DNA from: Heptranchias perlo
Taxonomy: Eukaryota
Direction: 5' to 3'
Length of the DNA: 64,000 nt
NCBI RefSeq assembly: GCF_035084215.1
Contig: NC_090359.1
Coordinates: 14,322,001 to 14,386,000, forward strand
Notes under the pieces: model-generated
What the model saw: only the letters and a program-made list of their open reading frames with translations
Databases searched by the model: none
What the model was told of the DNA's origin: nothing
Translations under genes and position numbers: made by a program
Part shown: one piece after another, positions 22,570 through 52,082 of the stretch
Numbering within the stretch: position 1 is the stretch's first letter
How the letters are laid out: every line of letters starts with the position of its first letter

Positions 22570-22877
22570 TTTTTTTTTCTTTTTTTTTGTGTTTTTTAGG
22601 CCCCCCTTTTATAAGAAGGGTGGGGGGGTGTAGGGTGTGCTTAAGTACAAAAAACCAAATAAAACGAAACCAGGCATCAAATTAAAATTTTATTTTCCTC
22701 GTCCAGGATGCACTCCAGCCCCTGCAGTGCCCACCGGTCGCGGAAAGCCTCAAGCGTACCGGCAGACACCGCGTGCTCCATCTCCAGGGCCACCCGGGCG
22801 CGGAGCAACCCGCGAAAGAGAGGCAGACAGGCCGAGCGCCCGCCCCCACGGACCGCGAGCATCCTGGACCTGTGGAT
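22570..22877 (-). mobile_element. Tx1-clade LINE 3' end (~300 bp plus A tail) inserted in the ZP3-A TATA box
   Basis: RARVALEMEHAVSAGTLEAFRDRWALQGLECILDEENKILI*, 3'UTR and an A-rich tail abutting GGTGCTGG. Confidence 0.9.
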
Positions 22878-22911
22878 ATCCAGGATGCACTCCAGTTTTG
22901 TCTAGTTTTCT

Positions 22912-24730
22912 GGTGGGTCAGTGGCGGGTGGAGTCCCTGCCGGAGGAGCTCAGGCCTTTCGCCTGGAGTACCACGCACCTCCGGTACCTGGGAGTCGACC
23001 TCGGCCCTGCCGAGGAAGCCTGGCCGGCGAACTGGGAAGAGCTGGAGGCCAAGGTCGCCGCTCGCCTGGCGCGCTGGACAGGACTGCTCCGAGTGTTATC
23101 CTACAGGGGTCGAGTGCTGGTCATAAACCAGCTGGTGGCCGCCATGTTGTGGTACCGGTTGGTCACTTTGACCCCACCCCCCGAGTTTGTCGCCAAGATT
23201 CAGAGGAAGTTCGTCGACTTCTTCTGGGCCAGACGGATACACTGGGTCGCTGCTGCGGTACTGATTCTCCCGCTTAGGGAGGGCGGTCAGGGGCTGGTGT
23301 GCGTCCGCACCCAGGTGGCAACTTTCCGCCTTCGGACGCTGCGGCGATACCTGTACGTTGAGCGTCCTCTTAGATGGCGTGCGCTGGCGACGTATTTTTT
23401 CCGCCAGCTGCACGGCCTGAACTACGACACGCAGCTCCTGTTCGTCTCGCTGGTGGGCGGCCGCACGTCTTTGCGGGAGCTGCCTGTCTTTTACCAGGAT
23501 CTGCTCAGGGTCTGGAACATGGTCGCCTCCGGTCGGAGCTCTCGCCCGTCAGGGGTAGCGGCTGTCCTGCAGGAGCCGCTGCTCGGGAATCCGTTCCTCC
23601 GCGATATCGGCTTCGGCCGCTCGCGGCTGTCGGTGCGGAGGGCCGTGGCCGGTCGGGTGACCAGAGTCAGGGACGTCCTGGATGGCGGTGGGTCGGGTTG
23701 GTTGGAGCCGTGGGCGCTCGCCGCACGGATGTCCTCGTGGCGTGCCGGGGACGCGGCCATCGCCATCCGGGCGTTGAAATCGGCGCTCGGCCCTGACTCC
23801 ACTCGGGATGTGGAGGCGGCTCAGGCGTGCGGAGCCATCCCGTCCGACCTGACCCCCGTTCGGACGGAGTTCCTCCTCGGCGCCAAACCCCGGAACCTCC
23901 CTCGGGGGGCCGCGCCTCACAACTTGAGCCGTCTCTTGGAAATTCCCTCCGTGCCGTTTCTCACCGCGCGGAGGGATTTCCTGTACGGGCTGCTCCTGCA
24001 CACCATCCACTTCCTCGCCCTCGTCTCTCGGCCGGACACGCCCTGGCGTAACATCCTGCCGTCCGGCGGAGACGGGTGTTCCCAGTGGGGGGCTCTCTAC
24101 TCAGGGATCCTCCCGTGTTCCATCGGGGATCTGGGGTGGAGAGTGTTGCACGGAGCCGTCGCGTGCAACCGGCGGTTACGCCATTTCACGGAACCCAGGC
24201 CGCTTGTGATTTCTGCGGCCTGGAGGAGTCCGTGTTCCATCTGTACACTGGGTGTGCGAGACTGCAGCCCCTGTTTGATTATTTGAAGGGGCTGCTCCTC
24301 AAGTTCTGGCTGCATTTCAATCCCACGCTCCTGATCTTTGGCCGCACGGTGAGGAGGGGAGCGGGCAGGTCGGTGGACGTCCTCGTGGGCCTGCTCCTGG
24401 GCCTGTCCAAGGTGGCCATCCACAGGTCTAGGATGATCGTGGTCCGTGGGGGCGGTCGCTCGGCCTGTCTGCCTCTCTTCCGCGGAATGCTCCGCGCCCG
24501 GGTGGCCCTGGAGATGGAGCACGCGGTGTCTGCCGGTACGCTCGAGGCTTTCCACGACCGGTGGGCACCGCAGGGGCTGGAGTGTATCCTGGACGAGGAG
24601 AATAAAATTTTAATTTGAACACTTGGTTTTGGTTTGTTTGGTTTTAGTATTTAAGCACACACCACACCCCCCTTCTTATAAAAGGGGGGCCTAACAAAAT
24701 AAAAAAAAAGAAAAAAGGAAAAAAAAAATC
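22912..24730 (+). mobile_element. 5'-truncated Tx1-clade LINE (late RT/thumb to C-terminal zinc finger, 3'UTR, tail)
   Basis: HLRYLGV, LSYRGRVLVINQLVAAMLWY, LPLREGGQGLVC, CDFCGLEESVFHLYTGC; one frameshift near 24190; stop at 24618. Confidence 0.92.
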
Positions 24731-25191
24731 TGAAAGTGAAAAAAAAAATTTAAAAAAAAATCGGAAAGTTTCTCTTTGTTTCAATCTCTTGGAATCATAA
24801 CTTTGAATTATTTGATAATAATTTGATATTTTCACTGAAGTGGCTCTTCATAATCTGGTCAAGTTTATTACTTGTTGGTGATTGTGATGTTGAGACAATA
24901 TTCAAAGCAATCAAGTTGTCTTGAGTGAATTTGCAAACCATCCATTGGTCAGAGAAATGGAAATTCCATCCCATGGATGGTGTGAATCGTCCCCAGTTCT
25001 AATATAGAGAATGGGTGTGTCTGAGGATTGGCAGCATGGGGGCATCAACTGGGCAAAGCATTGTGGGATGCATCATTTTTAGTTTTGATTCTCATGAAAT
25101 GTTGTTTGGTAAAATTCAGGATATTCAGCGAGAATGAGAGGCAGTGAAGATTACTGAATGCAATGTCACCCACACAAACATCTCCATTTGT

Positions 25192-49192: not shown

Positions 49193-49650
49193 ACTGGAGT
49201 GCATCCTGGACCAAAATAATAAAATTATTATTTGACAGTTATTTTGGATTTATTGGTTTCCTGCACATGAACACACCCTGAACCCCCCCTGCTTATAAAC
49301 GGTGGGCCGAAAAACACACATAAAAAATAGGAGGAAGAAAAGAAAAAGAATTGAAGCCAACAAAAAAAGGAAGAAAAATCAAGTATCATTAATGCCAGTC
49401 ACTGAACAAACAGATTGAGTTAACCCCTTTCACTCAAGCAATGTAAATGTTCCAAAAAAAAAGAAAAACACACAAGGAAAAAGGGAAAAAAAAAAGCCTC
49501 ATTCTGACTGAACTTCCAGTCGACAAAAAAACCACCCAAACCCCCCCTTCTTGTGAAAGAGGGCCGAAAACACAAGGGAAAAAATTATTATCACATATTC
49601 TGGGTTTATTGTTTACTGCACATGAACACACTCGAAGAATAAAAAAACAA
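49193..49650 (+). mobile_element. Stack of short diverged Tx1 3'-end stubs with A-rich tails
   Basis: CTGGAGTGCATCCTGGACCAAAATAATAAAATT...CCCCCTGCTTATAAACGGTGGGCCGAAAA, with a second hairpin remnant at ~49540-49570. Confidence 0.75.
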
Positions 49651-49654
49651 CACA

Positions 49655-50543
49655 AGGCCTCCGCCGGGGGGGAAGGAGGGCACCCTCGCGGAAAAAAGGC
49701 GAGGAGGAAAATCAAACATCTGGAGGCTGGTCCCCGGGATGCTGAACAATCGAGTGAGCCCGAGGCTGCGATCGTGACCGCGGCCGATCTACATCTCGTG
49801 GTCGCGACGGAGGCCGGGCAGATCGTTGGTCAGGAGGGAGCGGAGGAGGGGGCCCCAGCAGACCCTCCCGCCGCGAGCCTCCGGAAAGAAAAAAAGGCGC
49901 CACTCCCTGGAAGCGGAGGGGAACCCTGCAAAGGGACGGCCCCCCGTGGAAGGGGAGTTGGCACCTGCTACGGATCCAGCGGCCCCACCCTCCATTTCAC
50001 ACCATCGGCGGGAGTCGTCCACCACTCGGGGGGAGGAGACCGAGTCCGTGCCTCCCGGGGGGGATGGGGAGACCCTGCCTATAGGGGGGGTCGCGGATCC
50101 GGGCACGGAGGAGAGTATACAGTTCACCGGGTCGGGCGTCCTGGGTGCCGGGGTGGACGAGGCCGATAAGGCTGAATTCGCCCGCTCGCGGCTCGACATC
50201 TCCCAGGACCTGCTCGACCTGGTGGACGGTTTTAATAAAAACGTCTCACCTGCCGGGTCGGTTGGTGGCGGTGTGGGCGGGGGGAGCCCCTTCTCCCGGT
50301 CTCTGGGCACGGTGCCGGGTGAGTTGGGGAGCTGGAGTTCACTTACTCCCCGGTTTCCCCGACCGGTGGGCACCGCAGGGGCTGGAGTGCATTCTGGACA
50401 AAAATAATAAAATCTTAATTTCACACTGGTTTTTGGTTTTCTTTGGGTGTTTTTGCACATAAACAAACCCTAAACCCCCCCTTCTTATGAAAGGGGGGCC
50501 TAAAAACACACAAAAAAGAAGAAAAAAAGAAAAAGAAAAAAAA
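49655..50543 (+). mobile_element. Tx1 derivative: mid-ORF1 fragment fused to the 3' terminal module
   Basis: 49655-50355 aligns to 41744-42455, then GACCGGTGGGCACCGCAGGGG, 3'UTR and A tail. Confidence 0.88.
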
Positions 50544-52082
50544 GAGTCGCTGTTTTGAAACGATTGGATGTCTTTCAGGGCCCCATTTGCTTTTTTAACA
50601 GCCTTCTCAACTTGTCCTGCCACCTTCAAAGATTTGTGTAACTACACCCCCAGGTCTCTCTATTCATCCACTCCATTTAAAATTGTTGTCTCTCCTCAAT
50701 CTTCCGACCAAAATGTGTCACTTCACAATTCTCTGCAGTAAATTTCTTCTGCCATGTTTCTGCCCATTTCACCAGTCTGTCTCTGTCCTCCTGAAGTCTG
50801 TTACTGTCCTCCACATTGTTTATTACATTTCTGAGTTTCGTGTCATCTGCAAACTTTGAAATTATACCCTGTACTCCCAAGTCCCGGTCATTAATATATA
50901 TCAAGAAGAGCAGTGGTCCCAATACCGAGCCCTGGGGGACACCACTGTATACTTGTCTCCAGTCTGAAAAACAACCGTTCACCACTACTCTCTGTTTTCT
51001 GCTCCTGAGCCAATTTTATATCCACGCTGCCATTGTCCGTTTAATCCCATGGGCTTCAATTTTGCCAACAAGTCTATTGTGTGATACTTTATCCTCCCTT
51101 AATCTCTCCCTGCATAGAAACTCCCCGACCCATATTCATGGCCACCCCCTCGACCTTGCCATCTCACGTGGCCTCTCTCCCCCCGATCGTGTCAATCATG
51201 GATAAGGCCATCTCTGATCACTTCCTTGTATCCCTCTCCACCCACATGGAATCATAGAATCATAGAAAGGTTACAGCACGGAAGGAGGCCATTCGGCCCA
51301 TCGGGTCCATGCCAGCTCTATGCAAGATCAATCCATGTAGTCCCACTCCCCCAATGCACATCACAGAATGAACTCAGGAATCCCACGCCACTTTCTATGA
51401 GCGGTGACAGGCTGCGGTTATGATGCAGACCGGGACCCAGGGCTGAGGCTGTGGTCATCAGTTACTCTGGGAATGGCACAGTCTGGTTCATGACTAGCCG
51501 GGGGTGAGAGTAACACCAGGGAGTCAGGCTGGTGTTTCGAAGGGTGTGGGTTCCAGCTCCCGTTCCAGGACTGGGACACATGATCCAGACTGACTGTGTC
51601 GTGCTGAGAGGGAGCTGCATCGTGAGAGGTGCTGTCCTTTGAATGAGGTGTTTAATGGCGGTCCGTTCTTTCTGCTCCGAAGTGTAAAAGATCCCGTGAC
51701 AATTTGTGAAGAGCCGTGTCTCGTTCCTTGTCTCATTGAGACTCTCAGTTAATTGGTCTGTTCTCTCCACAGATTCGGCCTGACTCGCTGAGTGTTTCCA
51801 GAATGTTCTGTGTGTGTTTCACTGAGACTCGGGTTTTACAGTAAATGATAAAAGGATTGTTGTCAAACACTTGGCCATGAGCTGCTGAGTGACCTGTCGG
51901 GACATTGTTGCTTGCTTCCCTTCAGCTTGCACGGTTGGGGTTTCGGTGCACTGTCCCTTTAAGAGCTGTGGTCTGCCTCATTTGTCAGTGTGATTGTGGG
52001 ACTGACACAGAAGCGAGGGAAGAAGCAGCAGCCACAGCCCGGACTCCAGGCAAATTGTGAGGCTGGGACGAAAAGGCTGTTA

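Follow-up and report, generated by a model that had tools for sequence, protein, structure and literature searches.

Copies of a LINE family adjoin the promoters of egg-coat and ferritin genes in a 64,000-nucleotide stretch of the Heptranchias perlo genome (GCF_035084215.1, contig NC_090359.1, positions 14,322,001 to 14,386,000), referred to here as the window. This arrangement raises the question of whether the family targets multicopy germline Pol II promoters, as the original prediction had proposed, and if so, by what means.

Structure and affinity of the element

An intact copy measures 6.7 kb and has two open reading frames: ORF1 (680 aa), which has no Pfam match, and ORF2 (1301 aa), in which an APE endonuclease domain (Exo_endo_phos) is followed by a reverse transcriptase domain (RVT_1; Pfam). 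The best named full-length match is the ORF2 product of Xenopus laevis Tx1L (YTX2_XENLA), with 50% identity over the whole of ORF2. In a quick tree, calculated without named Keno, Dewa or Mutsu rows, ORF2 clusters with Tx1L, turtle and sturgeon proteins (SH-aLRT 94), and the lineages are not sorted by target. A tails, 5' truncation and target-site duplications are all found among 70 dispersed copies, from which 36 duplications of 9–17 bp were obtained. By its ORF layout, the grouping of ORF2 and these hallmarks, the element is a Tx1-clade non-LTR retrotransposon related to Tx1L, in agreement with the assignment first made from the letters. The family is young. Its GC-rich 5' UTR of about 700 bp may contain an internal promoter.

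Arrangement of copies in the window

BLAST comparison of one intact copy with the whole window yields matches confined to positions 22599–50500, with seven 3' ends at 22599 (minus strand), 24691, 30345, 45103, 46264, 49308 and 50500; the other matches are two 5' UTRs, one ORF1 piece and one 80-bp fragment. The restriction of copies to the central block, noted earlier, is thereby borne out. With this query the tRNA arms of the window show no element match, and targeting of tRNA arrays in the manner of Dewa was rejected for these arms.

ZP3-type gene A (19769..22569, minus strand), with Pfam matches to ZP-N and ZP-C and 93% to gene B, has its upstream promoter severed at the TATA box: a 5'-truncated copy of about 280 bp plus tail (22570..22882, minus strand, in ZP3 sense) merges at 22570 with the AAAA of this box. 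Back to back with it lie the 3' part of ORF2 (1.78 kb) and the 3' UTR of another copy (22910..24745, plus strand); this junction is probably the product of a rearrangement. Ferritin-1 with its TATA box (27347..29990, minus strand) stands head-to-head with an old truncated copy of 146 bp (30200..30405, plus strand), which has the short duplication AAAATCTG and a tail piece resembling ZP3 upstream DNA. An 80-bp fragment of the ORF2 end follows (30665..30744, minus strand; BLAST). The promoter of ferritin-2 (32735..35360, minus strand) is empty at the corresponding site (35325-35355), and the same paralogue type is occupied elsewhere.

Ferritin-3 with its CCAAT-rich promoter (37197..40250, minus strand) extends to a junction termed J1, at which a divergently oriented 5'-intact copy begins (40251..45130, plus strand). 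This copy comprises the 5' UTR, an intact ORF1 of 680 aa (40981-43023, plus strand), an ORF2 starting at 43054 (plus strand) with an internal deletion of 1.8 kb, the 3' hairpin and the A tail. It is separated by antisense ZP3 upstream promoter DNA (45131..45430, plus strand) from a second copy in tandem, internally deleted such that the 5' UTR is fused to the 3' end (45431..46270, plus strand), the tail of which meets the 3' region of ZP3-type gene B (46268..49192, minus strand; TATA box and E-box intact). An old truncated copy (49193..49460, plus strand) starts 65 bp above the TATA box of gene B and carries in its tail a piece of a further locus, Q (see below). The last copy consists of an ORF1 fragment and a 3' end (49655..50580, plus strand).

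Hence, four of the five promoters (ZP3-A, ZP3-B, ferritin-1 and ferritin-3) do carry junctions, as had been read. The ferritin-1 junction follows GTAAAATCTG and the ferritin-3 junction GAATCTGATCACATCTCTGTT, 14 nt apart on homologous DNA, close to the single point suggested. Two promoter contacts lie beyond that reading: the tail at 24700 meets ferritin-type upstream DNA at AA|TCTGAAAG, and the tail at 50545 meets the ZP3 CCAAT region in antisense orientation.

The local density, seven ends in 28 kb versus 50 exact matches of the 3' module in 457 Mb on C2–C4, is above chance. The module at 24549 has an identical flank in 29 of its 30 best matches. Several of the copies in the window each trace to one insertion that was later duplicated together with its block, and the local pile-up is partly block amplification.

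Dispersed copies and insertion sites

Genome-wide, 1,387 candidates were counted, and 597 truncated 3' ends are spread across all listed chromosomes. Judged from the first 100 places listed, the background amounts to about 0.11 3' ends per Mb, and by extrapolation about 240 of the 597 would lie in clusters, block duplicates included. The 36 duplications read (9–17 bp; the tally leaves out ten copies in which the duplication was doubtful or already counted) place dispersed insertions at unrelated sites with a preference for A or AA only; no TTTT/A consensus is seen in them. AATCTG, considered as a specific target, is absent from the dispersed sites.

A classical Tx1-type endonuclease specific for a single motif, such as AATCTG or the TATA box, would account for the repeated use of some sites, and Tx1L is indeed the closest named relative. 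Yet the sites reused many times (AA|TCCAGG, AA|GGTGCTGG and AA|TGTCCC) have only AA in common, the 36 dispersed duplications contain no motif beyond A/AA, and the endonuclease hairpin loop is three residues shorter than that of 2v0r, which we take to be an endonuclease chimera bearing the Tx1L loop. We regard such an enzyme as extremely improbable. The GTTCTGG site is on the gene-facing side of the TATA box.

Promoter fusion of 5'-intact copies

Copies with an intact 5' end are distributed differently. Matches to the start of ORF1 fall in ferritin/ZP gene clusters (C38, C43:4.3-4.6 Mb, C725 and C1048) in 60 of 61 cases. Among the 100 listed 5'-UTR matches (110 in total), 93 lie in these clusters or at the ZP4 gene on C49, and seven are dispersed. 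The 14 retrieved copies in which ORF1 and ORF2 are both intact, from stretches chosen around 5' ends, all stand in ferritin, ZP3 or Q contexts. Thus 5'-intact copies occur almost only at ferritin, ZP3 and ZP4 promoters and at the multicopy locus Q, and those examined join directly onto promoters of the host, in many cases as tandem copies. A random genome-wide distribution, named beforehand as evidence against targeting, therefore describes the dispersed 3' ends but not the 5'-intact copies. Taken on their own, the latter exceed the mark of more than 20% of flanks of one type that PMC4494074 sets for target preference. For locus Q there are 19–20 long copies, and its natural form adjoins ZP3-intron-like DNA; no gene was found in 8.7 kb of it and no promoter was recognised.

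Counts within clusters are inflated by block amplification. A junction between −300 and +80 is present at 20 of 30 sampled ZP3 TATA loci, and none lies in 19 intact gene bodies longer than 1.4 kb, which may reflect purifying selection. On C38, 10 of 15 sampled ferritin promoters have an element within 250 bp. A third target is provided by ZP4 promoters, which are located on a different chromosome and have a low occupancy (1 of 22 sampled on C23).

If insertion had been random and the ZP3/ferritin block was amplified afterwards, the enrichment would be an effect of copy number. The flank common to 29 of the 30 best matches of one window copy is what this predicts, as are dispersed copies at unrelated sites. 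It does not predict at least 13 distinct tail-to-promoter positions in ferritin promoters and several more in ZP3 and ZP4, on C38, C43, C23 and C49, where random insertion would give roughly 0.06 hits over all three sets of promoters (1,387 candidates × 150 kb in 3.25 Gb), nor tails of dispersed copies that point back to ferritin and ZP loci. Given the distinct junctions, amplification alone is already largely refuted and appears very improbable. One fixed site in one repeat was rejected over the same spread of ferritin, ZP3 and ZP4 positions and the unrelated sites genome-wide.

Particular junctions recur on different backgrounds: J1 on four diverged paralogue types and junction J2 on three, each with a donor-type promoter patch directly before the junction, and the ZP3 junction at +75 on at least three backgrounds. 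Gene conversion or unequal exchange at the DNA level is another way in which a junction and its donor patch could pass between paralogues. The 5' ends further bear traces of foreign promoters. The Q subfamily opens with ZP4 promoter sequence (about 55 nt), J1 starts with a ZP3-promoter remnant, and the sole full-length copy at a foreign site (on C30) retains 9 nt of ferritin promoter. The latter is flanked by a 200-bp duplication; long duplications therefore need no homology.

These observations bear on the most serious competing explanation, in which open-chromatin bias and selection of source copies would suffice, junctions being spread by gene conversion or unequal crossing-over without guidance by an RNA leader. 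Heavily amplified and homogenised clusters, the long duplication at C30 without homology, and truncated copies and cross-gene jumps that one leader could not guide are all compatible with it. Against it, the donor patches extend from near the TATA region up to the junction and stop there, the units of the arrays have their starts at many different nick sites joined through A runs, which exchange does not create, and foreign-promoter scars at 5' ends require host sequence on the RNA. On balance we consider this explanation unlikely.

Tail pieces and contigs across the junctions

In 3' transduction by L1 and SVA, flanking DNA carried along after the tail identifies the copy of origin. Tail pieces located inside the duplications of dispersed copies map to ferritin, ZP or Q loci in 18 of 21 cases, compared with one mapping to a reversed library. 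At a tail score of at least 15, 19 of 67 independent dispersed copies are positive and none in the control; the segmental duplicates L058, L378 and L379 were left out, the borderline matches L053 and L055 stand outside the 19, and such records are skewed toward whichever copies are transcribed. The copy nearest the promoter in the C725 array has the tail of its neighbour again, with one extra piece. Cross-gene tails are seen both ways, with ZP3 pieces in tails at ferritin sites and the reverse.

None of the runs containing the element is on record as RNA; spliced ferritin joints in four runs of one study show that these do contain RNA. In three of them, contigs (39887-40409, 39887-40337 and 40090-40337) cross from ferritin-3 into the element, and the ZP3-leader junction is spanned in one or two runs. 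Intron contigs are equally deep, such that DNA or pre-mRNA may be the source, and the contigs show neither a start nor a strand; they were given no weight.

A possible life cycle

Based on these positions, junctions, duplications and tails, we consider it fairly probable that the LINE borrows ferritin, ZP3 and ZP4 promoters, is likely transcribed from them, and that the host leader likely rebuilds the fusion in other gene copies; transcription start and leader guidance are what we infer. A host promoter would transcribe the element, either in sense behind a ZP3 leader or divergently from ferritin or ZP4. The transcript would continue beyond the 3' hairpin into flanking DNA and be A-tailed at variable points, so daughters would carry a piece of the parental site. 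The endonuclease may nick loosely before A or AA and strongly favour these open promoters. There, the cDNA end would anneal via the host leader, restoring the junction and duplicating 21–580 bp, and new copies landing beside the promoter would build tandem arrays. Insertions elsewhere would mostly be truncated and sterile, and on rare occasions a full-length copy inserted at a new promoter could found a subfamily that keeps the scar of its old host.

A more far-reaching version is offered tentatively, as a possibility: a vertebrate LINE that lives off the promoters of protein-coding multigene families without one of its own, homing by the host leader on its RNA to oocyte-gene promoters, regenerating the fusion with each full-length insertion, switching host gene families (from ZP3 to ferritin and from ZP4 to Q) and listing ancestral sites in its tail. 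Targeting would then be RNA-assisted and reprogrammable through the leader instead of fixed by the endonuclease.

Relation to known systems

R2 joins its 5' end guided by homology. Like the cycle proposed here, R2 in 28S rDNA depends on host transcription, and co-transcription is reported to strengthen targeting (PMC4494074). In contrast, R2 uses a restriction-like endonuclease at a single position of a gene transcribed by Pol I, whereas the present element has an APE endonuclease, Pol II protein-coding hosts and several host switches. Targets given for the Tx1 clade in the pertinent part of PMC4494074 comprise DNA transposons, U2/U5 snRNA, 5S rRNA, satellites, LTR elements and microsatellites. 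Tx1L and its clade (Keno, Kibi, Koshi, Tx1-Mar) share with our element the preference for multicopy targets and tandem stacking. It departs from them in using promoters of protein-coding families without shared sequence, at many positions, with most copies dispersed. The predicted link to multicopy Pol II promoters is real and wider than proposed (ferritin, ZP3 and ZP4), and the idea of a single target site falls away: the family has a strong preference tied to its reproduction, not a fixed target of the Keno or Tx1L type. The word germline is inferred from the ZP genes and would be an assumption for ferritin.

An SVA subfamily driven by the MAST2 promoter likewise has a host promoter piece at its 5' end (PMC4494074); in that case a promoter was captured once and later copies did not go back to it, while our element shows recurrent capture and copies gathered at the donor family. 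The Tf1 element of fission yeast and the Drosophila P element share the insertion bias to Pol II promoters. They are, however, an LTR and a DNA element, each equipped with a promoter and tethered by host factors, for which promoter borrowing, arrays and long duplications are not described in the part of PMC4363357 concerned. Target lists for non-LTR elements in the corresponding sections of PMC4640811 and PMC4494074 name RNA genes, transposons, microsatellites and telomeres, and no promoters of protein-coding families. The literature covered, thin for subscription papers and Repbase reports, contains no account of Tx1 elements associated with promoters of ferritin or ZP genes; a shark genome preprint has no ferritin, ZP or Tx1 passage, and passages of PMC13188248 give nothing further on 5' homology.

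If the proposed cycle is correct, it would show how an element can be expressed in the germline and insert safely into multicopy DNA with no need for a sequence-specific nuclease, the tails would be a natural record of source lineages, and it would suggest that a 5' leader can direct an APE-type LINE to insert precisely and at full length. There is also a bearing on how the egg-coat and ferritin clusters evolved, with a junction in two thirds of the sampled ZP3 promoters.

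Element family and host genes

The window holds two ZP3-type egg-coat genes and three ferritin genes, and matches to the Tx1L-related element are confined to positions 22599-50500, with seven 3′ ends. The original observation that four promoters of these genes had been hit, with the ferritin-2 site left empty, was confirmed on both points. Amplification accounts for part of this local accumulation, since a genome search with the copy that ends at 24700 gave its own flank again in 29 of the 30 best hits.

Intact copies measure 6.74 kb and encode ORF1 (680 aa) and an APE-RT ORF2 (1301 aa). 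The closest named full-length relative of ORF2 is that of Xenopus Tx1L (50% identity), parts of the element's ORF2 match ray and shark sequences at 67–71%, and a quick tree clusters the element with Tx1L, turtle and sturgeon proteins. The element is a member of the Tx1 clade, but it is not a fixed-site family. The family is young, because about 0.85 Mb of stretches selected around 5′ ends contained 22 intact ORF2s (mean identity 96%) and 14 copies with both ORFs. A terminal hairpin (window 24670-24691; C6-T2/A2-G6 stem, 7-nt loop) is conserved at every 3′ end and directly precedes the tail. No canonical polyadenylation signal follows this hairpin.

In this 3.25 Gb genome the ZP3, ferritin and ZP4 families are amplified. 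There are 108 intact ZP3 TATA motifs. Ferritin promoter motifs number 109, array duplicates included, on contigs C38, C43 (4.28-4.77 Mb) and C725; the C43 stretch is a tandem cluster of about 50 such motifs spaced 5-10 kb apart. A ZP4-type promoter motif has 127 matches, mainly along C23, and the gene comprises a signal peptide, trefoil, ZP-N and ZP-C domains. Roughly at least 70 copies of this trefoil-bearing ZP4/ZPB-type gene lie along C23 (L249-L270), with others on C1594 and C49, at 81-98% identity over 3 kb. A further multicopy locus, locus Q (L306:8300-9200; L391-L410), in 8.7 kb of which no gene was found, combines a TATA-like box with a short exon-like part and a GT donor; it adjoins ZP3-intron-like DNA and carries the element in many of its copies.

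Location of 5′-intact copies

Matches to the ORF1 start fall in 60 of 61 cases on C38, C43 (4.3-4.6 Mb), C725 and C1048. Among the 100 listed of 110 5′-UTR matches, 93 lie in the amplified clusters or at the C49 ZP4 gene, and 7 are dispersed. Inspected singly, 5′-intact copies were fused to promoters or sited at locus Q, where several Q copies are close to contig ends. Fusions with ferritin promoters (three junctions, J1-J3) and with ZP3 and ZP4 promoters are head-to-head; in a ZP3 sense fusion the element begins at +75, behind the TATA box, leader and first codons.

A junction was present within -300 to +80 at 20 of 30 ZP3 TATA loci sampled in order, and at none of 19 intact ZP3 gene bodies. 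On C38, 10 of the 15 ferritin promoters without an element on the gene side have one within 250 bp; ZP4 occupancy is lower (1/22 on C23). Were some 1,400 copies inserted at random, we estimate that roughly 0.06 of an insertion would fall within 150 kb of target promoters. The 5′-intact copies also form arrays of up to five at about 6.9-kb spacing, whose spacers each join an A-run to a promoter piece with varying start point. Ferritin promoters show at least 13 distinct tail-to-promoter positions, mostly after AA, and ZP3 and ZP4 several more, which we count as independent events. Tail-only insertions and repeated A-run/promoter pieces, lacking the element body, occur at ZP3 and ZP4 promoters (L083, L086, L074 and L312, the last at C49:27815500) and look as if they came from abortive priming.

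Dispersed copies and their tails

Searching the genome with a 22-mer from the 3′ module gave 597 exact matches, at a density of about 0.11 per Mb on C2-C4. Reading 70 dispersed copies from the first 75 listed matches, we found 61 shorter than 1.4 kb and 9 extending beyond the fetched flank; none of the 70 lay in a target promoter. Their 36 clean duplications are 9-17 bp long, 25 beginning with A, and display no target motif beyond this initial A. The proposed promoter targeting is partly supported: 5′-intact copies are largely confined to the promoters and locus Q, but 3′ ends genome-wide are not site-specific.

5′ truncation recurs about 145 nt before the 3′ end (8/70 begin at 6590-6601 of 6739; window 30200 and 50354, L035, L036, L041, L046, L351 and others), which may reflect processing or pausing at this point, or else a non-autonomous form of short length. 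Further truncation clusters lie near 6464 and 5363. Downstream of a few dispersed copies (L353, L364, L033 and L043) lies DNA resembling a promoter, rich in CpG and with CCAAT boxes and a possible first exon, which hints that the bias may extend to open promoters more widely.

The tails, from the 3′ hairpin to the downstream duplication, are series of A-runs interrupted by short pieces. From 13 dispersed copies with clear duplication and pieces, 18 of 21 tail pieces matched ZP3, ZP4, ferritin or Q loci, compared with 1 that matched a reversed library; a tail score of at least 15 was reached by 19 of 67 independent dispersed copies versus 0 in the control. Outside the clusters lie 19 of 43 matches to a tail-plus-ZP3 sequence, and the 16 that were read all proved to be element tails carrying 15-335 nt of ZP3 DNA, which starts at the TATA box. 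Because of this starting point, the ZP3 DNA would represent read-through from a copy at the ZP3 TATA rather than mRNA. Likewise, element tails account for 7 of 8 ZP4-motif hits off C23 among the first loci. As the pieces trace to these loci, nearly all traceable parent copies would have sat in ZP3, ZP4, ferritin or Q loci.

5′ ends and possible mechanism

Full-length copies are flanked by repeats of 21 to about 580 bp, versus 9-17 bp for truncated copies. Three diverged ferritin paralogue types share junction J2, and four carry J1. In type-A hosts the DNA is of the donor type from a point about 25 bp beyond the TATA box up to J2, and this stretch differs from the sequence of empty type-A genes. 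At C43:4324646 and C38:7719159 donor-type letters stand in the upstream repeat copy and are absent from the downstream one; they are few, and age could explain some. Gene conversion is able to explain such donor patches but not foreign scars: a ZP3-promoter remnant stands at the head of J1, about 55 nt of ZP4 promoter open the Q subfamily, and the sole full-length foreign-site copy of the ferritin-fused subfamily retains 9 nt of ferritin promoter at its start and has a 200-bp duplication. These 5′ ends fit an RNA that would start in host DNA and whose cDNA would anneal to the target.

Positions, junctions, duplications, tails and intact ORFs of the element are direct observations. We hypothesize that a host promoter drives element transcription, that the transcript may read through past the 3′ end with variable A-tailing, that nicking would be loose and biased to ferritin and ZP promoters, and that 5′ joining may be guided by the host leader, leaving dispersed copies presumably sterile. 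Such host-driven transcription with leader-guided return to promoters is the more probable mechanism, RNA data being given no weight; open-chromatin bias combined with gene conversion is less likely. ORF2 lineages are not sorted by host in a quick tree, which favours leader or chromatin targeting over the nuclease.

The putative dependence on host transcription would resemble R2 (PMC4494074), and the preference for Pol II promoters that of Tf1 and P (PMC4363357). The non-LTR target lists examined in PMC4494074 and PMC4640811 hold no protein-coding promoters. The literature covered, with Repbase reports and most subscription papers outside its scope, contained no report of a Tx1 family at ferritin or ZP promoters.

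The window arms (1-19000 and 51000-64000) carry tRNA genes, four in all (Glu, Asp, Glu, Phe), alongside repeated blocks. A different LINE, which from its motifs we take to be CR1-like, has an intact endonuclease-RT ORF of 980 aa at 60685-63627.
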